DNA of 35,501 nucleotides from an uncultured Methanosarcinales archaeon (GCA_964645415.1 CAZXZL010000005.1:1-35501), one strand, 5' to 3'; positions 15,053 to 35,348 are shown, counted from the stretch's first letter. Notes: a model not told the origin generated them from the sequence alone. Numbers and translations: made by a program.

Positions 15053-15245
15053 TTAATATATTTTTAATTAAGTATAAAATTCCTCTTTAAATAATGATAA
15101 TAACAATAAGAGTAATAAAAATAGTAAAAAAATTAAAATTAATAATCCTTATAACAAGACTAAAAAATGAAATAAAAACAAATAAAATTTTATAGAAAAG
15201 TTTTTATAATGTGAATTCATAAAATACTATATGATTGGGTTGGGT

Positions 15246-16739: not shown

Positions 16740-16801
16740 AAACAAATATTACTACTTAATCATAATAAATTTAATGTCTTGATTATAAAAAGGTGATTCA
16801 A

Positions 16802-17782
16802 ATGGAAAAGTATAAAATTTCTGAAAAAGGAAAAAAATACTTAAAGAAAGCTGCAGCATTCGGTGTTGGAGCTGCTTTAATTGCAAGTAGTTATGTTGGT
16901 GGAGTTTTAGCTAATGATGATATTGAAAAACAAGTTAATGAAGAATTAAACAATGAAACAAAAATTACTCAAGAAGTAGATCATGATTTTGATTTCAAGT
17001 TTGATTATAATAGAGTATCTCATGATGACTTTAGAGAGATTTATGATACAACAGGAGAAGGAGTTGATTTTAAATATGATTCATCTAATAAATTTGAAAT
17101 TGATACTAACATCGGCTTTAAAGATAGTGGATTAATTATTGGTGGTAATTATAGTAATAAATCTTTTTCAGGAGATATGATTTATGGAGAAGATAAAAAT
17201 GTTGGTGATTCAAGTAAAAAAGCTTCAATAATACTTGGAAGGTTAGGATATAATATAGATGAAGATACAATTATTCATACAGGTTATGGAAGTATTAGTG
17301 GAGAAAGAATAGCTAATTTTATCGATGATGATAGAGATTATGGTACTGATTTTAATGATTCTATAGTTGAAATTGGATTAAATCATAGTGGTAAATCTGA
17401 TGAGAATAAAATCAACCTTGAATTTATCTTAGATCGTGCAATAAATGATAATAATACAGGAATTAGAGGAAATGTTGATATAGAATCTAATGGAAATAGG
17501 TTTGGAGTTAATTTAGATAATTCTGCAAAATCTGAATACTTAGTTGACCGTTTAATTGATTTTTATGGATTAAGATCAATAAATGTTAATGATGAAAGTA
17601 GTATAAAAAATTCAGAAATAGGATTAAGTTACCAAAATTCATTAGAAGAAGGAATTGATAACATGATAGGATTGATTGGAAGTTTAGAAACAGAAGAAGG
17701 ACTAAATATTGATTTAAGATTAAAAAGGTCTCTAAATTCTGATACAAGTGGATTAAATATTAGTTTTGAATATGATTATTAA
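16802..17782 (+). CDS. Secreted beta-strand-rich (porin-like) protein, family B member 1
   Basis: There is an N-terminal signal/anchor, KKAAAFGVGAALIASSYVGGVLAND. About 260 aa then show alternating hydrophobic/polar strands (FEIDTNIGF, GLIIGGNYS, ASIILGRLGYNI, SIVEIGLNH, KINLEFILD, NRFGVNLDN, SEIGLSYQN, LNIDLRLKR). It ends in GLNISFEYDY, with aromatic or hydrophobic residues at positions -1, -3, -5, -7 and -9. It is homologous to the C-terminal domain of the 19216 gene. The track start 16793 is a GTG inside the SD. Confidence 0.75.
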   Translation: MEKYKISEKGKKYLKKAAAFGVGAALIASSYVGGVLANDDIEKQVNEELNNETKITQEVDHDFDFKFDYNRVSHDDFREIYDTTGEGVDFKYDSSNKFEIDTNIGFKDSGLIIGGNYSNKSFSGDMIYGEDKNVGDSSKKASIILGRLGYNIDEDTIIHTGYGSISGERIANFIDDDRDYGTDFNDSIVEIGLNHSGKSDENKINLEFILDRAINDNNTGIRGNVDIESNGNRFGVNLDNSAKSEYLVDRLIDFYGLRSINVNDESSIKNSEIGLSYQNSLEEGIDNMIGLIGSLETEEGLNIDLRLKRSLNSDTSGLNISFEYDY

Positions 17783-17846: not shown

Positions 17847-17889
17847 TTACTAACTACTACCATTTAAGGGAAAAAATTAGGTGGTTCTA

Positions 17890-19023
<1,134 letters not shown>

Positions 19024-19215: not shown

Positions 19216-20898
19216 ATGTATTTAAAAAATAAAGTTAATAAAATTAAAGAAAAAGGTAAAGATTATATGAAGAAAGCAGGTTATGGTATTGGTGCTTTAG
19301 CTATAGCAGCTTCATTAATGACTGGTAGTGCTGATGCTAGCAACATCAATGATGATTATCAAAATGAAGTTTTAAATGAGATGAATAATCAAAGTGTTCT
19401 TGAGTTAAGTTATGATAGTTTAGATTTAGAAGATAGAGATAATCTTGAAGACGAAATTAATAATGAAAGTAATAGCTATTCTTATAAAGAATCATTAATT
19501 TTAGATGATTTAAGATCAGATAATCTTTCTGCTATTGAACAATATGAAAGTATTGATAAATGGTTAGATGATATGTATCGTGGAAATTTAAAACCAGCAC
19601 ATTATGAACAAGTTATTGGTAATGAAACATGGATAAAACAATTATCAATTATTGATGGTGATGATGTTAGTTATGATGAAATGAAAGATACTCTTCAAAG
19701 TAAATACGATAGAGCATTAAGAAGAGAAAGAAGAGAGAGAGATTTAGATCGAGATGAAAGAGATAGTCCTGAAGTAACAAAATGGAGAGATCTAGATACA
19801 GACGAAATTTTAGAAAGATTAGATGAACTAGATACTGATGAAGATTTAGAAGAAATTGTAGATGATGAAAAAATCGAAAAACCTACACCAGATAAAGTAT
19901 ATGAACCTGACTTAGATGAAGAAAAAGAAGATTATAAAGTAGATGATACATATGAACCTACAGAAGATCCTGATGATGAATATGTTGTTGATACTACTGA
20001 TGATGAAATTGAAGATGATAATGATTATGATCCAATCGAAGAAGATCCTAGTGATTTAGAAGAAATTCTTGATGAAGAAAAAGAAGTAGAAAGAAAATCT
20101 GATATTAATAGAAATTATGTGAGTTTTGAATATGGTCAAAATCAAGGTGCAGGAACTAGCGATATTTATGATACAACTGGTGATGGTGTAACTTTTGAGT
20201 ATGATCAATCAAGTGAAAAAAATATTGAAGTTGGATTTGAAATTCCTGATACTGATTTTAATGTTAGTGGATCATATTTTAGTCGAGATTTAGAAGGAGA
20301 TATGGTTTATGGAATTGATACTGATAATGAGATGGAAGTAGGAGATGCGACTAAAAATCAAACATTACTTTCTCTTGGTGTTGGATATGATTTTGATGAA
20401 AACTTAAATACATCAATTGGAGTAAATAAATATGATGAAGAGAAAATAGCAAACTTTGAAGATGATGATAGAGATTATACATTTGAAGACTCAGATATCA
20501 TCCCAGAAGTAAATGTTAGACAAATTATAGATATTAATGACTCAGATGAACTTGCTTTAGAAGGAACTTTAGATTATTCAACCTCTGATTCAGAATTAGG
20601 TTTTAGATTAGGAGGAGATTATTATTTTGGAGATAATAGAGTTGGATTAGATTTTGATAACACTAAAGTATCAGATAGATTAAATGAAAGAAGTATGAGT
20701 ATTAGTGCTGATAGAACATTTAATGATGATTATAATGTTGGTGTTAGTTATAATAAGTCTTTAGAAGATGATGTTGGAGATAGTATTGGAATTAATGCAA
20801 GTTACACATATGAGGATTTAATGTTAAAATTTGGTGTAGATAGAGGTATTGATGATGATGAACTTGAATCTATACTTGGACTCGAATTAAGTTTTTAA
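19216..20898 (+). CDS. Secreted protein: signal peptide, N-terminal domain, highly acidic linker and C-terminal porin-like beta-rich domain (family B member 2)
   Basis: The signal KKAGYGIGALAIAASLMTGSADASN has an A-x-A-like site. The D/E-rich linker spans about aa 170-295. The C-terminal approx. 260 aa align with the 16802 gene (IYDTTGDGVTFEYD, GDMVYG, EKIANFEDDDRDY, GVSYNKSLEDD). It ends in ESILGLELSF, with a terminal Phe. Confidence 0.8.
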   Translation: MYLKNKVNKIKEKGKDYMKKAGYGIGALAIAASLMTGSADASNINDDYQNEVLNEMNNQSVLELSYDSLDLEDRDNLEDEINNESNSYSYKESLILDDLRSDNLSAIEQYESIDKWLDDMYRGNLKPAHYEQVIGNETWIKQLSIIDGDDVSYDEMKDTLQSKYDRALRRERRERDLDRDERDSPEVTKWRDLDTDEILERLDELDTDEDLEEIVDDEKIEKPTPDKVYEPDLDEEKEDYKVDDTYEPTEDPDDEYVVDTTDDEIEDDNDYDPIEEDPSDLEEILDEEKEVERKSDINRNYVSFEYGQNQGAGTSDIYDTTGDGVTFEYDQSSEKNIEVGFEIPDTDFNVSGSYFSRDLEGDMVYGIDTDNEMEVGDATKNQTLLSLGVGYDFDENLNTSIGVNKYDEEKIANFEDDDRDYTFEDSDIIPEVNVRQIIDINDSDELALEGTLDYSTSDSELGFRLGGDYYFGDNRVGLDFDNTKVSDRLNERSMSISADRTFNDDYNVGVSYNKSLEDDVGDSIGINASYTYEDLMLKFGVDRGIDDDELESILGLELSF

Positions 20899-20957
20899 CT
20901 TGTTTTAATTTTTTATAAAAAGTTTTATTTAGATGTGAGTATATAAATGTTAAAATG
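20806..20957 (+). repeat. Direct repeat copy 1 (last 30 codons of the 19216 gene, its 3' flank and the next start codon)
   Basis: It aligns by eye at about 90% identity with 23802-23957 (acatatgaggatttaatgttaaaatttggtgtagatagaggtattgat...ttaagtttttaacttgttttaattttttataaaaagtttta...). Confidence 0.9.
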
Positions 20958-21380
20958 ATGTTTTATACTCACATGATATTTTCTTCTTTTATTTTTTTCA
21001 TATATTTTTTATTTATAGGAAAAAATTTTGACTTCTCTTTTATTCAAATTTCTTATCTTTTAATTACTGTCTTTTTTTCTTTGTTAAGTGATATTGATTC
21101 TTCTAAATCAAAATTTGGTAGAAAATTTATTTTTTCATTTTTATTTAAACATAGAGGTATATTACATAGTATATATCCATTAATTTTTTTATATCTTATA
21201 AACATATATGCTTTTTTAGGTTACAGTTCCCATTTGATTTTAGATTCACTTACAAAGAAAGGTATAAAACCATTTAATACAAAATTTAAAATTAAAGGAT
21301 TTATAAAAACAGGATCAATTTTTGAAAAAGCAACATTCTTTTGTATATTTCTTGGATTAGTTTATATATTATCTATATAA
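20955..21380 (+). CDS. YdjM/DUF457-like membrane-bound metal-dependent hydrolase
   Basis: It is a polytopic membrane protein with THMIFS, LLSDIDSSKSKFGRK, HRGILHS and SHLILDSLTKKGIKPF. Confidence 0.65.
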   Translation: MMFYTHMIFSSFIFFIYFLFIGKNFDFSFIQISYLLITVFFSLLSDIDSSKSKFGRKFIFSFLFKHRGILHSIYPLIFLYLINIYAFLGYSSHLILDSLTKKGIKPFNTKFKIKGFIKTGSIFEKATFFCIFLGLVYILSI

Positions 21381-21447
21381 AAAATAACTTAAGAAAAAGT
21401 AAAAAATACATAAATAAAAAAGAATACATTTAATAAATTACATTTAG

Positions 21448-21801
21448 TTAAAAATCTTCACTATCTTTTTTGCTATCAAAAAGTTCTTCAACAGATTTTT
21501 TATCCTCTTTAGTTTCATTACTTTTTTTCTTTTTATCAAATTTACTGTAATCTTTATTTTTCATGTTTTTCATGTCTAAGTCTTCAATGAGTTTTGCAAA
21601 AGCTACACTTTCAAGCACTTTTTCTACTTTTATTTTGACTCTTTGACCTTTAACAGCATTTTTTACAAAGATCACAAAACCATCAATCTTAGCGATTCCA
21701 TCACCTTTATCTCCAACATCATTAATCTTCACTTCTAAAACTTCTCCAGCAGTTACAGGCTGTTCTTTCTTACCTTTATTTTTGTTATTTTTTCTATTCA
21801 T
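21448..21801 (-). CDS. TRAM domain protein with K/E-rich tail
   Basis: VTAGEVLEVKINDVGDKGDGIAKIDGFVIFVKNAVKGQRVKIKVEKVLESVAFAKLIE is a canonical stand-alone archaeal TRAM domain. Confidence 0.8.
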   Translation of the reverse strand: MNRKNNKNKGKKEQPVTAGEVLEVKINDVGDKGDGIAKIDGFVIFVKNAVKGQRVKIKVEKVLESVAFAKLIEDLDMKNMKNKDYSKFDKKKKSNETKEDKKSVEELFDSKKDSEDF

Positions 21802-21899
21802 TTCGACTCGACCTTACTAAAAGAAAATCTAAAAAAGTTATATGTTGAAACTTTTTAGAAAATAATCTTATCATTACCATTTTACTTTTATATTAGTAT

Positions 21900-22376
21900 T
21901 TATTTTTTTCGTTTTTTTGATTCTAATAAATCTTTTTTATCTTTTTCATCTAAAACAGGCCTTGCTATTATTGAATCTTCTTTTTCTAAAACAACCCAAT
22001 CATCAAATTTTCTTCTAAGAGTCATTTTAGGTACTTTTGATAAAAGATATGGCCTATTATTTTCATCAAATGTAACTTTAATAAAATATTTATCATGCTC
22101 TTCTTTTAAATCTTTAAGTTTTTTTAAATTTTCATTAAATTTTTTAACACGTTTTTTTTCTTCAATTAAGTTTTCTGGATCAATTTTTTGAAATGGTTTA
22201 ACTAAATTAAAGTTATCAAATTCTGCCCATAAAAAACACTCCCAGTATTCTTTAGGTTTAGGAATTTTTTTTGAATCTTTAGCTAAAAGGTGAACTTTTT
22301 TATTGTAAAAAGCAATTACTGAATCATGCTTTCCTTCACCTTTCTTATTTTTCTTAAACTTAAGTATTATATTCAT
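21900..22376 (-). CDS. Hypothetical basic protein (158 aa)
   Basis: It is a long ORF in AT-rich DNA with no recognised motif. Confidence 0.6.
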   Translation of the reverse strand: MNIILKFKKNKKGEGKHDSVIAFYNKKVHLLAKDSKKIPKPKEYWECFLWAEFDNFNLVKPFQKIDPENLIEEKKRVKKFNENLKKLKDLKEEHDKYFIKVTFDENNRPYLLSKVPKMTLRRKFDDWVVLEKEDSIIARPVLDEKDKKDLLESKKRKK

Positions 22377-22475
22377 ATATATTGAAAATGTTATGTATTT
22401 ATTTAAAGATTATGGTAATATTTTCCATTTTTCATTAAAAGTATTTATAGCTTTGCTTTTATTACATTTTATAAA

Positions 22476-23894
22476 ATGTCTTTAAAAAAGATAATAGATG
22501 ATACTGGTGTAAAAAAAGCTTATATTAGAAATGGTGATATTAAAAAAGAAAATAATATTTTTGATAAAATAAAAAATCTAAACCCATTTAATGATCAACC
22601 TGATATAATATATTCTAATGATCCTATTGAATCAAAAAATTCTATTAAAAGATATTATAATGATAATGAAGTTCACTATAAAAAAAAATCTACTCTTGAA
22701 GGTTTAATAGAATATAATGAATTATCATATGAAAATAAATCAGATAATAAATATGGTTATAAATTAAAAACTCAATTAGATTTACTTAAAAAGTATTATG
22801 AGAACTCAGTATCTGACATTGATTTATCAAACCATACTGATGTACTAAAGAGATTTTATCATCTTAATACATGGAAATCAAGAGTAGAATATATAAACCT
22901 TTTAAAAGATTCAATTCCTGAAAAATTAATTTCTGATATGTATGTGATTATTATGAGTAATAACTATGTTAAGAAAAAGATATTAGATAATGAAAGCATT
23001 TATTCAAATTTAGAAAATATAAAAGATTCAATTAATTTTTATCAACATGAATTAAAAAATTACAATACTTTAGAGATTGTTAATTATTTTAAAAATCGAA
23101 TAAAACATAATTCTAATGATTTAAATATTGATGACTTAGAACTTGAATATAAAAAAGGTTATAATTGGAGTAATTACTTTAAAGAGATAGATAATCTTGA
23201 AATTGATTTTAATGAAAAAAGATTACTTTTTTCAATTTTAGGAGATAATTCATCATTAGAGGGATATTATAATGGAATTAAAAAAAAAGTTGACCAAATA
23301 ATTTCTAAAGAAGGTTCTTTAGAGGAATTAATAGAAGAATTTGAATGTCTAAAGGAAAAAGAAGACATGTCCAATCTTATGGAAGATTACTTAAAAGATT
23401 TAATTAGTTATCATATAGATGGTTTTGATAATGAATATTCTGAAAATAAAGTTAAAAAATATTTTAGTAGTCTAAAAAATAATTTTAAAAATAAGTTAAA
23501 AAGTCTTTCTAATGTTAAAAAAATTAACCCTATAAAAAAACTAAAATCAATATATGATAATAAAAATAAAAGTAATTTATCAAAAAAATATAAATCTACT
23601 AACTCTATTGAAAATAATAATGAAAAAAATAACTTATCTAATAATTTATCAAGTGATAAAAGTAATATTCTAAATGAAGAAATTAAAAAAGATAATTATG
23701 TTTCAGATAAAATTTCTAAAGAGAAAAGTACTTCTTATAATTATGAATCTGAAAATATTTCATATAATGATGATAAATATAATAGTATTAATACAAATCA
23801 TACATATGAAGACTTAATGTTGAGATTTGGTATAGATAGAGGTATTGATTATGATGAACTTGAATCTATACTTGAACTTGAATTAAGTTTTTAA
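22476..23894 (+). CDS. Hypothetical K/N-rich protein (472 aa) with a grafted family-B C-terminal 30-aa strand module
   Basis: It has no signal peptide and the body is unlike family B. The last 30 aa, TYEDLMLRFGIDRGIDYDELESILELELSF, are near-identical to the C-terminus of the 19216 gene, and the nucleotide repeat continues past the stop. Confidence 0.7.
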   Translation: MSLKKIIDDTGVKKAYIRNGDIKKENNIFDKIKNLNPFNDQPDIIYSNDPIESKNSIKRYYNDNEVHYKKKSTLEGLIEYNELSYENKSDNKYGYKLKTQLDLLKKYYENSVSDIDLSNHTDVLKRFYHLNTWKSRVEYINLLKDSIPEKLISDMYVIIMSNNYVKKKILDNESIYSNLENIKDSINFYQHELKNYNTLEIVNYFKNRIKHNSNDLNIDDLELEYKKGYNWSNYFKEIDNLEIDFNEKRLLFSILGDNSSLEGYYNGIKKKVDQIISKEGSLEELIEEFECLKEKEDMSNLMEDYLKDLISYHIDGFDNEYSENKVKKYFSSLKNNFKNKLKSLSNVKKINPIKKLKSIYDNKNKSNLSKKYKSTNSIENNNEKNNLSNNLSSDKSNILNEEIKKDNYVSDKISKEKSTSYNYESENISYNDDKYNSINTNHTYEDLMLRFGIDRGIDYDELESILELELSF

Positions 23895-23957
23895 CTTATT
23901 TTAATTTTTTATAAAAAGTTTTACTTAATTTGAGTATACAAATTTTAAAATAAAATG
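23802..23957 (+). repeat. Direct repeat copy 2
   Basis: See copy 1. Stop codons are 2996 nt apart, and the following ATGs (20955 and 23955) are exactly 3000 nt apart. Confidence 0.9.
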
Positions 23958-24245
23958 AAAAAAGATTTATTTGAAAAGGAATTATTGAAATCTTCTGATC
24001 TTGAAAAAACAATTGAAGAGTATGATTTCTTAAAAATAAATGAAAATTCAGTATCAAATTTTTTAGTATTTGCTGATTATCTAAAAGATATTTATGCATT
24101 TGAAGAATATTTAAAAGATTCCAATAAATCTAATAAAAAAGTTTTTTTATATGGATCAATTATTGCTGCTAAATCATATTTAGTTTATAGACTTGCAAGA
24201 AATTATTTACCAATGATAAGAGATTATCTAACAAATTTATTATGA
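23955..24245 (+). CDS. Hypothetical 96-aa ORF behind the duplicated ydjM-type 5' flank
   Basis: Its ATG occupies the position equivalent to the ydjM-like ATG in repeat copy 1, so it inherits that upstream region. It has a C-terminal hydrophobic helix (VFLYGSIIAAKSYLVY). It overlaps the 3' end of the dph2 relic convergently by 22 nt. Coding status is uncertain. Confidence 0.35.
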   Translation: MKKDLFEKELLKSSDLEKTIEEYDFLKINENSVSNFLVFADYLKDIYAFEEYLKDSNKSNKKVFLYGSIIAAKSYLVYRLARNYLPMIRDYLTNLL

Positions 24246-24487
24246 CCAAAATGTAATATATGATCAAATTCTTTCATACCTAATGGAATATCACATGCAC
24301 CAAAACTAGGTCCTAAGTATAATGCATGATCAATATTATTTTCTTGAAATATATTAGAAATTTTTTTTGAATATGGTTTTAAACCATCTGGAAATTGTAG
24401 TAATACTTTTTTACCTTTATATTTACTTAAATAAATATCGAATTCTAATTTAAGTTCTTTAATCTTGATTTTCATTTTCTGTTTCAA
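24224..24487 (-). pseudogene. dph2: Truncated diphthamide synthase Dph2 (N-terminal approx. 85 aa only)
   Basis: KGKKVLLQFPDGLKPYSKKISNIFQENNIDHALYLGPSFGACDIPLGMKEFDHILHFGHNK matches the N-terminal region of archaeal Dph2 (approx. 330-340 aa), i.e. ..vliQ.PeGL...a..la..le......fl.g....GaCd........d.liHlGHs. The remaining approx. 250 aa are absent. All three minus-strand frames downstream hit stops within about 20 codons. Confidence 0.55.
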
Positions 24488-25388
24488 ATATTAAATTATC
24501 TTGAATTTCATTATATCTTTTCATATATTTTTCAGAATCTCTCATCTTTTTCAATTCTTTTGAAAAACCATATAATTCTTTTAACCATAATAAAATATCA
24601 TCTTCGATATCTTCATTAAAGTTTATTTTAATTTGATCTTCTCTAAATTTAATTTCTCTATTAGCTATCTCTTTTCTTAAATATCTTTTTGATGAGTGAA
24701 TAAACTTATCTATTAATAAGTCAGGTTTTTCAATAGGTAAAGATAATGTTATTTTTGGAAAATCATTAAATTTTACATTAATTTTCATATTTCCTTCTTT
24801 TGGTGCAAATATTGTAACTTCAGATTTTTTTAATTCTATATTAAAACCATTATTTTTTTTATTAATATATGATTTAAACTTCTTAATAGATTTTAAATTT
24901 GGATTATGTTCTTTATTAACTTTCTCATTAATAAAAGATTTTACTTGTCCATTTGGAACAAATATTTTTTCAAAAGAAGACATATCTTTAGAAAAAGTTT
25001 TTAATTTTCCTTTTGTGTTTTCTTCAAAAATTATTGGATTTCTTTGAGGTTCACAATATGCCAATAAGCTTTTATAAACACATCTTTTATTCATATTAGA
25101 AATAGTGTTAGTAATTTTTTTAACACCAATTGTACCTTCAACAAATTCAGAAAAAAATGATGGAAATCCATTTAATTCATCTATTTCAAATGAACTTATT
25201 AATAATATTACTTCTTCATCTAATTTATTTGAAGCATATTTTACAGCTTTTTTAGTAAATATTTTTGGATTATAAGAAAATAATGGTAATTTGAAATCAA
25301 TTAATTCTATATCTATATCATCTATACTTAACTCTTCTTTTAAATATCTACCATATCCTCTATTTTTATCAAATAATAAGAATTTCAT
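24459..25388 (-). CDS. Degenerate HAM1/ITPase-like domain protein with an approx. 130-aa C-terminal extension
   Basis: FEIDELNGFPSFFSEFVEGTIGVKKI and YKSLLAYCEPQRNPIIFEENTKGKL align with the archaeal HAM1 core (..veaLnGfPGtYSkfvqetiG.egi.. / ..viGyc....v.lf.G.vkG.i). The catalytic-type motifs are replaced: T-x-N-x-x-K becomes FDKNRGYG, E-D-S-G becomes ISSF, and S-H-R is absent. Confidence 0.5.
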   Translation of the reverse strand: MKFLLFDKNRGYGRYLKEELSIDDIDIELIDFKLPLFSYNPKIFTKKAVKYASNKLDEEVILLISSFEIDELNGFPSFFSEFVEGTIGVKKITNTISNMNKRCVYKSLLAYCEPQRNPIIFEENTKGKLKTFSKDMSSFEKIFVPNGQVKSFINEKVNKEHNPNLKSIKKFKSYINKKNNGFNIELKKSEVTIFAPKEGNMKINVKFNDFPKITLSLPIEKPDLLIDKFIHSSKRYLRKEIANREIKFREDQIKINFNEDIEDDILLWLKELYGFSKELKKMRDSEKYMKRYNEIQDNLIFETENENQD

Positions 25389-25424
25389 ATATAATTTAAT
25401 TATGGTAGATATAAAAATTTTTTG

Positions 25425-26117
25425 TTAGTGATTTTTTTTAACTTCTAAAAGTTGATTAAGAGCTAAAAAATAGTGTTTTAACTTAACTTTACTATCACCT
25501 TTTTCTTTCCATTTAACAGGTATTTCTTTAATCTTATAACCTTTTTTTCTAGCAATATATAATATTTCAAAATCAAAACCAAATCCATCTATTGTTTGTT
25601 CTTCAAATATATCTAAAACATCTTTTCTAAAAAGTTTAAAACCACATTGTGTATCTTTTAAATTAAGGTGTAGAATTGATTCTACAATGAAATATGATGT
25701 TTTTCCAAGAATTTCTTTTAAAGGTTTTCTTTCTGCTTTAGGAGATACTCTTGATCCGATTACAATATCGTAATTGTCTATAAATTTAATTATTTTTTCA
25801 AATTGATTTAAAGGAGTTGCAAGATCTGCATCCATCATTAAATTAATCTCTCCTTTAGATACATGCATCCCTCTTTTTACTGCATATCCTTTACCTTTAT
25901 TTTTATTATAGGATAGAAGTTTTAAATTATTATAATTAGATTCTTTTTTTATTTTTTTTACAATATCTTCTGTATTATCTTTAGATCCATCATTTACAAT
26001 AATTATCTCGAATTCATCTTTTTCATATAATTTTAGAAAATAATTCCTAGTTTCTTTTATTGTTTTTTCAATTAAATTTTGTTCATTATATGAAGGTATT
26101 ATGATTGATAATTCCAT
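25425..26117 (-). CDS. GT2 glycosyltransferase (dolichyl-phosphate hexosyltransferase-like)
   Basis: The motifs are LSIIIPSYNEQ, EIIIVNDGSKDNT, NKGKGYAVKRG and MMDADLATP (DxD). Confidence 0.85.
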   Translation of the reverse strand: MELSIIIPSYNEQNLIEKTIKETRNYFLKLYEKDEFEIIIVNDGSKDNTEDIVKKIKKESNYNNLKLLSYNKNKGKGYAVKRGMHVSKGEINLMMDADLATPLNQFEKIIKFIDNYDIVIGSRVSPKAERKPLKEILGKTSYFIVESILHLNLKDTQCGFKLFRKDVLDIFEEQTIDGFGFDFEILYIARKKGYKIKEIPVKWKEKGDSKVKLKHYFLALNQLLEVKKNH

Positions 26118-26177
26118 TTTAATATTTCATCTCTTTGTTATTATATTTAATTAAATGCTTTTTAAATTTATTTATTT

Positions 26178-26903
26178 TTAATTAGAAAATATTCTTTTTG
26201 TATTATTTATTATTACTTTTTTCATAGGTTTTTGTTTTATTTTTTCAATTACAGGAATACTTTCTTTGATTCTATGAGGAAAATTTTTTGTTTTATCTGA
26301 AGATAAAAAAGGAGAATCAGTTTCTAAAAGTATTTTATCATCATCAATTAATTTAACTATTCTTTTAAAATGGTCACTTCTTAAAACATTTGTAGGTATA
26401 GAAAAATAATGACCTAATTTTAAAGCTTCTTTTACTAAATTCATATTACCTGAAAAACAATGTAGAATAGAAGATCTTTTTGCATTTTTCTTTAACATCT
26501 TAATTACTTCTTTTTCAGCTTTTCTTGTATGAATAGACATTGGTACATTTAATTCATTTGAAATTTGAATAACTTTTTTAAATACCTCTTTTTGTTTATC
26601 AAAGTTATTATAAGTTTTATCTAAACCAACTTCTCCAATTAATTTTGGATTATTATTTTTTATAAACTTTAAAACATTTTCTTCATTTTTCCATAAAACT
26701 TTTCTTACTTTTGGTGAAGGATAAATACCATATCCTGGCATTAAAACATCTTTATTACTTTCCCATAACTTTTTGACTTTAGAGTTATTATCTCCAGTAC
26801 CAACTACAATAGCTTTGAAATTATTTTCTCTTAATTTTTTTAATGCATAATCTACTTCTTCTTCATTATAATAATCAAAGTGACAATGTGTATCTATTAG
26901 CAT
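26178..26903 (-). CDS. tatD: TatD-family metal-dependent hydrolase/DNase
   Basis: The motifs are MLIDTHCHFD, GEVGLD, SIHTRKA, LHCFSG and ETDSPF. Confidence 0.85.
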   Translation of the reverse strand: MLIDTHCHFDYYNEEEVDYALKKLRENNFKAIVVGTGDNNSKVKKLWESNKDVLMPGYGIYPSPKVRKVLWKNEENVLKFIKNNNPKLIGEVGLDKTYNNFDKQKEVFKKVIQISNELNVPMSIHTRKAEKEVIKMLKKNAKRSSILHCFSGNMNLVKEALKLGHYFSIPTNVLRSDHFKRIVKLIDDDKILLETDSPFLSSDKTKNFPHRIKESIPVIEKIKQKPMKKVIINNTKRIFSN

Positions 26904-27018
26904 TTTAAATATGGTTAAAGTGTCATTATAAAAATACTTTTATTTATTCATTCAATGTTATTCACAATCTTATTTTTATTATTAAATTCATTATGATACT
27001 ACTATTATTTGTATCACT

Positions 27019-27293
27019 TTTAAGTTTCTATTAAATTCTATTTCTTTTTATTTCATTCATATAATTACTTTTTCCTTAGATGATTTGCTCTCAAATTTTA
27101 TCACACTTTTAAATTTGTAATTTAATAAGTTCTATAAATTTTTGATTTTAGTAATTTGATAAGGATGGTACCATATTTCATATGGCACTTTAGTTCCTAT
27201 AAATTTCGATTTCTTTTTGTTTCTATTTTTATTAATATTTTTTTATTTAGATGATTTTGATTTCTAATTTCTTTAGCTGATACGAAGATTATT
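27019..27293 (+). repeat. Dispersed intergenic repeat, locus A (two tandem sub-units, A1 approx. 27019-27110 and A2 27158-27287)
   Basis: It is colinear with 35012-35293. The 24-mer taaattctatttctttttatttca (27032-27055) is identical to 35025-35048. A2 and B2 are both 130 nt and about 75-80% identical by eye. A1 is itself a degraded copy of A2 (…tttctattaaattctatttctttttatttca…ttagatgatttg…). Confidence 0.8.
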
Positions 27294-32155: not shown

Positions 32156-32180
32156 TTTTTTTTCTTTTTCTTTTTTTATT
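32156..32180 (+). terminator. Oligo-T terminator
   Basis: The tract ttttttttctttttctttttttattt starts 2 nt after the hsp20 stop. Confidence 0.5.
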
Positions 32181-35011: not shown

Positions 35012-35293
35012 TGTTGAATTTTTATAAATTCTATTTCTTTTTATTTCAATTTTTATCAATTACTAAAAACAAAGTTTTTAGAATAATTAAAAGTGTAACT
35101 TTTAAAACCAAAAAAAAAGTAAATTTTTTTGAGTATAGAAAAGCTATGCTTTTCGTATAAATTGGTAAGGATGGTACTATACTTTGTATAGCACGGTAGT
35201 TTCTATTAAATTTTATTTCTTTTTGTTTCTTTTTCCATTAGTATTTTTTTTCTTAGATGATTTTGATTTCTACTTCCTTTAGCTAAAACGAAT
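35012..35293 (+). repeat. Dispersed intergenic repeat, locus B (sub-units B1 approx. 35012-35110 and B2 35164-35293)
   Basis: See locus A. It has the same order and orientation and includes the covarying hairpin at 35174-35194. Confidence 0.8.
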
Positions 35294-35348
35294 ACATATT
35301 ACTAAACTAAAGTTTAGAACTTATTAAATTAAAAATTTAAAAGTGACT

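Follow-up and report, generated by a model that had tools for sequence, protein, structure and literature searches.

A short ectopic copying event that likely grafted a gene end and its 3' spacer onto a neighbouring gene junction in a Woesearchaeota-type archaeon

In ectopic gene conversion and related short-patch copying in prokaryotes, a tract on the order of 10^2 bp is copied in one direction to a site a few kilobases away while the donor remains unchanged; the tract has sharp edges and an identity that greatly exceeds that of the genes around it, and it is missing from the recipient's orthologue in other genomes. Template switching (templated insertion by fork stalling and template switching or microhomology-mediated break-induced replication, FoSTeS-MMBIR) copies a nearby upstream segment in direct orientation and replaces local sequence, with microhomology at the junction. 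Chimeric genes can also arise by partial duplication and promoter capture, where a 3' fragment becomes the C-terminus of another gene and a promoter-bearing spacer is duplicated. Mechanisms of genome plasticity are hardly documented in the DPANN archaea and the Woesearchaeota. Here, a direct repeat of 166 bp is described within a 35,501-nt stretch of archaeal DNA (CAZXZL010000005.1:1-35501 of GCA_964645415.1, hereafter called the window) that connects the 3' end of a gene encoding a 560-amino-acid (aa) protein of an orphan family (family B) with the 3' end of an unrelated gene encoding a 472-aa protein. The underlying event is of a known kind, a short ectopic duplication that results in a chimeric gene end and a promoter swap, and it offers a well-resolved natural example of a single short copying event with two effects, a chimeric protein end and the exchange of the neighbour's promoter. 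It is likely that, after the split from the nearest sampled relative, one such event pasted about 166 bp into a site 3 kb downstream.

The window was compared with itself (self-BLASTN), which revealed a single outstanding direct repeat (table 1) with 89.2% identity over 166 alignment columns (17 mismatches and one 1-nt gap, E = 1.3e-56). A first-pass annotation of the window, made from the sequence alone, had reported a direct repeat of about 90% identity, an estimate that exact alignment bears out. The location was also correct (20806-20957 and 23802-23957), with left edges about 15 nt short of those found here (20791 and 23787), and the coding part of the repeat holds 35 codons rather than 30. 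Copy 1 contains the last 35 codons (I526-F560) and the stop codon of the 560-aa gene and the entire 56-nt spacer up to the start codon of the downstream ydjM-like gene (ydjM). Copy 2 contains the last 35 codons (I438-F472) and the stop codon of the 472-aa open reading frame (ORF) together with the spacer, and ends 3 nt before the start codon of a gene encoding a 96-aa protein. Identity between the copies is similar in both parts (89-90% in coding sequence and spacer): the 108 nt of coding sequence contain 12 mismatches (four synonymous changes and eight nucleotide changes in seven nonsynonymous codons, i.e., 4 out of 11 changed codons are synonymous) and the 58 nt of noncoding sequence contain five mismatches and the gap. 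The longest perfect runs are 25, 24, 18, and 17 nt. Both edges are sharp, with identity dropping to background within the two coding regions on the left and ending 0-3 nt ahead of the downstream start codons on the right. These start codons, at 20955 and 23955, are exactly 3,000 nt apart, as previously noted, and the spacing of the repeat is 2,996 nt. The four genes described as lying between the copies are indeed present (ydjM, a TRAM-domain gene, a gene for a 158-aa protein and the 472-aa gene). Only the 166-bp tract occurs twice in the window and the 9.5 kb past its end, and self-BLASTN returned no second copy of ydjM, the TRAM gene, the 158-aa gene or the body of the 472-aa gene within the window. 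A 22-mer common to both copies had three matches among metagenome contigs; all three are unrelated or due to chance and come from contigs that have a GC content of 29-46% and encode other genes.

The 560-aa protein and a 329-aa paralogue, which together form family B, share 32% identity over 253 residues (roughly 30% in the first-pass annotation) in an alignment that runs through the C-terminal tail. Similarity between the 472-aa and the 560-aa protein is confined to the last 36 residues of the former (78% identity, E = 3e-14), and it was confirmed that the 472-aa protein has no hydrophobic N-terminus or signal peptide and no other similarity to family B. Because the tail belongs to the family-B domain and the 472-aa protein is otherwise unrelated to it, the direction of copying was from the 560-aa/ydjM junction to the 472-aa/96-aa junction. 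This agrees with the earlier proposal of a family-B tail grafted onto an unrelated gene, the tail being native to family B and the 3' flank having been copied along with it. The 472-aa protein can be divided into a conserved part (residues 1-330), a low-complexity part (about residues 330-437), and the grafted tail (residues 438-472). In an AlphaFold2 model of the C-terminal domain of the 560-aa protein (two-sequence alignment, 15 antiparallel strands, predicted local distance difference test [pLDDT] 74, predicted template modelling score [pTM] 0.59), the 35 residues of the repeat make up nearly all of the last three strands. In contrast to other chimeric genes formed by partial duplication, the fragment of only 35 residues (3 of about 15 strands) is not an independently folding or functional domain, and the C-terminus of the 472-aa protein gives no basis for assigning this protein to a barrel family.

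The gene content of the window is archaeal (eRF1, the CDP-archaeol synthase CarS, PyrB/PyrI, the TRAM protein, and a Dph2-type fragment; GC about 22%) and its nearest database relative is the NCBI metagenome-assembled genome (MAG) GCA_048623255.1, labelled Candidatus Woesearchaeota. Judged by sequence, the host is a Woesearchaeota-type archaeon. The Ham1-like protein encoded to the right of copy 2 has one homologue, in this MAG (62% identity), located on a 6.5-kb contig (contig 81, L008) that encodes PyrB, TatD, GT2, the Ham1-like protein (313 aa), an 83-aa Dph2 fragment, a 96-aa protein, a 508-aa protein, and the start of the 158-aa protein. Gene order and orientations match the window, with identities of 63% for the Dph2 fragment, 54% for the 96-aa protein, 77% for the 158-aa protein, and the 62% of the Ham1-like protein. 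Upstream, synteny with the window is seen on a second contig of the relative (L003), which breaks off within its homologue of the 560-aa gene (56% identity). The orthologue of the 472-aa protein was located through synteny only: the match of the 508-aa protein is limited to residues 1-330 (39% identity), and its C-terminus consists of low-complexity sequence followed by three tandem repeats of about 34 residues that end in ...RKETPFQF, without a family-B tail. The three repeats are near-identical (…NLNSKINSDFYTVDKRYRKETPYDNLKSK…; L008 4504-6030, minus strand). Neither a tail-like peptide nor repeat-like DNA was found in L003 and L008. The DNA of the two genomes aligns on both sides of copy 2 (68% and 72% identity) and shows no alignment across 23294-24053, which holds copy 2; orthologous coding DNA is only 68-81% identical between the genomes. 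A scan of genome contigs with the Ham1-like protein as query gave no match in that scan. The Woesearchaeota chromosome OY970338.1, found through a scan with PyrB, was tried as a syntenic relative and rejected, its synteny not extending beyond pyrBI.

The comparison with the relative also shows which of the two copies is ancestral: copy 1 is native and the homologue of the 472-aa protein in the relative lacks the tail. The gene order of the window is common to the relative and is ancestral, the 96-aa ORF and the Dph2 fragment are conserved genes and not by-products of the event, and the 166-bp patch is the only derived feature. Two suggestions of the first-pass annotation are thus revised. The 3-kb segment was regarded as a possible insertion or four-gene segmental duplication, whereas the gene order is shared and only 166 bp are doubled, and the 96-aa ORF was regarded as new, whereas a 96-aa orthologue is found at the same position in the MAG. 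For annotation, the 3-kb block should not be treated as mobile, and the 96-aa ORF and the 83-aa Dph2 fragment should be treated as conserved genes. With 89-90% identity between the copies, in the spacer as well, and a junction region that, spacer included, is unalignable between the genomes, the copying is placed after the split of the two lineages, unless the copies are being homogenised. The event had been called recent, which is correct in that the family-B paralogues had already diverged, and the nearest relative had already split off, when the copying took place; the term has to be qualified, as the copies differ by 11% and the arrangement is fixed and base-identical across samples.

Table 1. 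Features at the two junctions, with positions counted from the first nucleotide of the window
Feature	Position	Strand	Basis or remark
Repeat copy 1 (source)	20791..20956	+	self-BLASTN
Repeat copy 2 (graft: last 35 codons, stop, oligo-T, TATA box before the 96-aa gene)	23787..23951	+	
Spacer of copy 1 (oligo-T runs, likely archaeal terminator; TTTATAA TATA box)	20899..20954	+	predicted role
Donor gene, 560-aa family-B protein (Sec-type signal peptide, acidic linker, C-terminal all-beta domain resembling an outer-membrane barrel)	19216..20898	+	
ydjM-like membrane hydrolase gene, 3' of copy 1	20955..21380	+	Pfam YdjM, E 8.7e-17
TRAM-domain RNA chaperone-like gene, between the repeats	21448..21801	-	Pfam TRAM, 1.2e-14
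158-aa conserved hypothetical gene, between the repeats	21900..22376	-	77% to partial syntenic orthologue in the relative
Recipient gene, 472-aa K/N-rich protein	22476..23894	+	
96-aa conserved hypothetical gene, with the copied ydjM spacer now 5' of it	23955..24245	+	
83-87-aa ORF, N-terminal ~60 positions of Dph2, convergent with the 96-aa gene	24224..24487	-	

Under the favoured reading, about 166 bp of the 560-aa/ydjM junction would have been copied, in the same orientation, into the 472-aa/96-aa junction, where the patch would have overwritten the native spacer and the 3' end of the 472-aa gene, a fast-evolving stretch of low complexity. It would have brought with it three predicted beta-strands, the last ones in the barrel domain of family B, as well as a stop codon, oligo-T runs and a TATA box, and the four genes between the copies would have been present throughout, neither mobile nor inserted. 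Two mechanisms could account for the transfer: a non-allelic gene-conversion patch, made while a break in the plastic 3' part of the 472-aa gene was being repaired, or a template switch during replication, via microhomology, to the site 3 kb upstream and back again. The tandem repeats at the end of the 508-aa protein indicate that the C-terminus of the 472/508-aa gene is a hotspot of structural change in both lineages. The right edge of the patch stops exactly at the start codon of the 96-aa gene, as a longer tract would have destroyed this gene. A possible microhomology at this edge emerges when the sequence at the start of the relative's 96-aa gene (...TGTTAAAAATGA) is set against that at the start of ydjM in the window (...TGTTAAAATGA); the shared candidate, TGTTAAAA, is 8-9 nt long and would resemble the microhomology of template switching, with the difference that it is deduced here from a single diverged relative. 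At the left edge, the sequence is of low complexity and unalignable with the relative. Classical ectopic gene conversion acts between pre-existing paralogues, whereas the recipient in this case has no detectable prior homology to the donor; furthermore, a new chimeric gene end was made and no family was homogenised, in what would be a one-off event and not the output of a programmed cassette system.

The spacer carries candidate signals for both termination and initiation. Runs of four to six T residues follow directly after the stop codon, and the motif TTTATAA is located at 20912-20918 in copy 1 and at 23908-23914 in copy 2, 46-47 nt upstream of the start codons (43-46 nt by a second count for ydjM). 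Across the window, TTTATA[AT] is present at positions -65 to -30 of 13 out of 42 genes compared with an expectation of about 0.05 per 36 nt of coding sequence, an enrichment that fits an archaeal TATA box. The 472-aa gene has therefore probably gained a terminator and the 96-aa gene is probably under the control of a copied ydjM promoter. A scan for bacterial promoters and terminators gave background levels, bacterial models not being relevant to an archaeon, and Rfam returned no RNA family at the gathering threshold or, over 20600-24300, at E <= 1. In copy 2, a 13-bp inverted repeat (23876-23888 and 23922-23934) surrounds the stop codon and the TATA box (RNA fold z = -3.4); the equivalent inverted repeat in copy 1 (20880-20892 and 20926-20939) is much weaker (z = 0.15), and some of the substitutions that distinguish the copies make the pairing stronger in copy 2. 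The grafted tail keeps its reading frame and the alternating hydrophobic pattern. It is most likely a tolerated passenger, because three barrel strands on a protein without a signal peptide have no obvious role.

Several points weigh against this account. The comparison depends on a single relative, whose contigs break inside the homologues of the 560-aa and 158-aa genes, so that its 560-aa/ydjM junction and the ydjM-TRAM region fall into the contig break. With two taxa, the distinction between a gain in the window and a loss in the relative is made by the identity argument, and old copies that keep undergoing gene conversion with each other would look young. A donor that came from a diverged strain could also account for the 11% divergence. 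For the recipient site no prior homology can be demonstrated, which leaves conversion of the classical, homology-driven type unproven. The roles of the putative promoter and terminator are deduced from motif position only, and the dN/dS ratio (nonsynonymous to synonymous substitutions) of the tail, about 0.5, is based on 12 changes, too few to separate neutrality from weak constraint.

The same origin could be combined with an adaptive outcome in which the patch was retained because it is useful. The tail might dock onto or strand-complement a family-B barrel or act as a C-terminal recognition signal, or the spacer might co-regulate ydjM and the 96-aa gene. The frame, the stop codon and the alternating hydrophobic pattern have survived 11% divergence, several of the replacements are conservative (K/R, V/I, S/N, A/T) in addition to the four synonymous codons, the TATA box and the oligo-T runs are intact in both copies, the inverted repeat of copy 2 surrounds the TATA box, and the arrangement is fixed in all sampled contigs. 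However, an open frame that survives 12 changes in 35 codons is unremarkable, the replacements D to Y, G to E and Y to H are not conservative, the lack of a signal peptide in the 472-aa protein would put the tail into a different compartment than the secreted barrel, and the relative manages well with no such tail. AlphaFold2 gave an uninformative model for the 472-aa protein (single sequence, pLDDT 37). Adaptive retention is rated as unlikely. A more specific version, in which the tail with its aromatic C-terminus serves as a portable module, for recognition or strand complementation, through which the 472-aa protein is coupled to the barrels while the spacer places ydjM and the 96-aa gene under common control, is speculative and has a distinctly small probability; if true, it would represent a module similar to the beta-signal that is shuffled between genes in a DPANN archaeon.

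A different origin of the repeat, a tandem duplication of a whole 3-kb unit (tail, spacer, ydjM, TRAM, 158-aa gene, and 472-aa body) followed by an illegitimate deletion from the ydjM start codon to the 96-aa start codon that left the first 166 bp of the second copy, is unlikely. The repeats are direct and their spacing of 2,996 nt equals the length of such a unit; the left edge of copy 2 would then be the duplication junction, and the right edge lies where the second ydjM would start. However, this scenario needs two separate illegitimate events, the second of which must end exactly at the start codon of the 96-aa gene, and it requires that the 472-aa gene lost its native 3' end by deletion as well. 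The missing remnants of a second ydjM, TRAM gene, 158-aa gene, or 472-aa body are a further difficulty, and duplicates normally collapse by homologous recombination, which restores the original state.

The two copies also resemble the attachment-site (att) repeats of integrated elements, in which a few genes are flanked by direct repeats, of which one overlaps a gene at its 3' end. A 3-kb element that integrates or is excised by site-specific recombination or homologous loop-out would explain the direct repeats around a discrete set of four genes, and, as the copies share identical runs of up to 25 nt that could allow rare recombination, loop-out between them is physically possible. In contrast to att-flanked elements, no signal of an integrase, recombinase, transposase, phage, or defence protein was identified in or around the segment (Pfam, NCBIfam, PHROGs, PADLOC), the repeats are imperfect (89%), the cargo includes genes that look like housekeeping genes (ydjM and TRAM), and the 158-aa and 472-aa genes are syntenic in the relative, which has no repeat there. 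In the four databases, the proteins at the locus gave YdjM, TRAM and three that lack a significant family match. Deletion variants that join the 560-aa gene to the 96-aa gene were sought among the public contigs and none was found. An att-flanked element is thus very improbable.

The weakest alternative is an assembly artefact, a chimeric join or a misplaced strain variant of the 560-aa/ydjM junction: the sequence comes from a metagenome assembly (its contig names are of the megahit k141 type), but no stretch longer than 25 nt is identical between the copies and the assembler used k = 141, so that k-mers are copy-specific throughout and a collapsed or chimeric repeat is very unlikely, a second sample (ERZ27265998) yielded an independently assembled contig with 100% identity over 7,360 nt (window 19898-27257), the same arrangement is found in five out of five public contigs with the 472-aa or 96-aa protein, the contigs break at other repeats and not at this locus, and both flanks of copy 2 are orthologous to contiguous sequence of the relative. 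The window itself lies within a 75-kb ENA metagenome contig (ERZ27266011 k141_839883). In 21.4 kb compared between the window and the public copy of this contig, the sole difference was the length of a poly-T run (1 nt, 32163-32171).

The donor family is separate from the repeat finding and adjoins the repeat locus. The two family-B proteins (16793-17782 and 19216-20898) have a Sec-type signal peptide (…AAS.MTGSADA|S), a very acidic linker and a C-terminal domain of about 265 residues. Bacterial outer-membrane beta-barrels (porins, FadL, the BamA barrel) end in an aromatic C-terminal strand, the beta-signal. Similarly, an all-beta fold in which hydrophobic residues alternate is predicted for the C-domain of family B, the family ends in ...LSF and has a signal peptide, and in a Foldseek search the model matches only outer-membrane barrels among the top 50 PDB matches, all of them bacterial (E = 5e-4 or weaker). 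In contrast to these barrels, family B belongs to an archaeal host in which neither an outer membrane nor BAM machinery is known, the TM-scores amount to only 0.35-0.5 (0.29-0.51 for the top 50), and the scores for Pfam Porin_4 (22.4 bits, cut-off 27) and NCBIfam PopA (15.7 bits, cut-off 150) remain below threshold. The earlier label "porin-like" holds only in part. A profile of the C-domain found no relative other than the two proteins of the window among 1.84 billion representative proteins, and a literature search on beta-barrels in DPANN archaea and Woesearchaeota found nothing pertinent. Family B is thus best described as an orphan family with a barrel-like prediction, which is curious in an archaeon and may be the more intriguing biology at this locus. 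Between the two family-B genes, a 380-aa protein (17881-19023) is encoded that has a signal peptide, long poly-N tracts and the motif ESTFDE…DYGLMQVNE, which is reminiscent of the catalytic motif of lytic transglycosylases; it has no Pfam or PDB sequence match. The 380-aa gene and the 329-aa paralogue have no counterpart in the L003 stretch of the relative, which contains unrelated ORFs of 254 aa and 127 aa.

Among the genes between the copies, the TRAM gene also matches NCBIfam PyTRAM (E = 1.3e-21, 76.1 bits, below the curated cut-off of 85). The 472-aa protein had no match in Pfam, PDB (profile of the 472-aa and 508-aa proteins), PHROG, or PADLOC, and a word-indexed search for its homologues returned only the protein itself from a candidate list saturated by K/N-rich words.

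To the right of copy 2, the Dph2-fragment ORF matches positions 3-64 of the 308 positions of TIGR03682 (E = 2.6e-15) and marks the ancestral right-hand flank. The possibility that it was freshly truncated by the same rearrangement was rejected, the same 83-aa ORF (63% identity, same stop) being present in the relative, and it is a conserved mini-gene and not a fresh pseudogene. In both genomes it ends in ...HFGHNKF[VI]R directly before the stop codon (L008 3905-4156 in the relative) and overlaps the end of the upstream Ham1-like gene. The Ham1/ITPase-like protein (24459-25388, minus strand) carries a C-terminal extension of about 130 residues without a family match that is kept in the relative. 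A second, unrelated family of intergenic repeats was also observed (about 135-200 nt, 76-93% identity), which contains a short GGTACCATA…TATGGCAC hairpin. It has at least four copies, one of them past the end of the window (26983-27286, 35019-35345, 15153-15198, and 1810-2192 of contig L013), and the public contig L002 ends inside a copy of this family.

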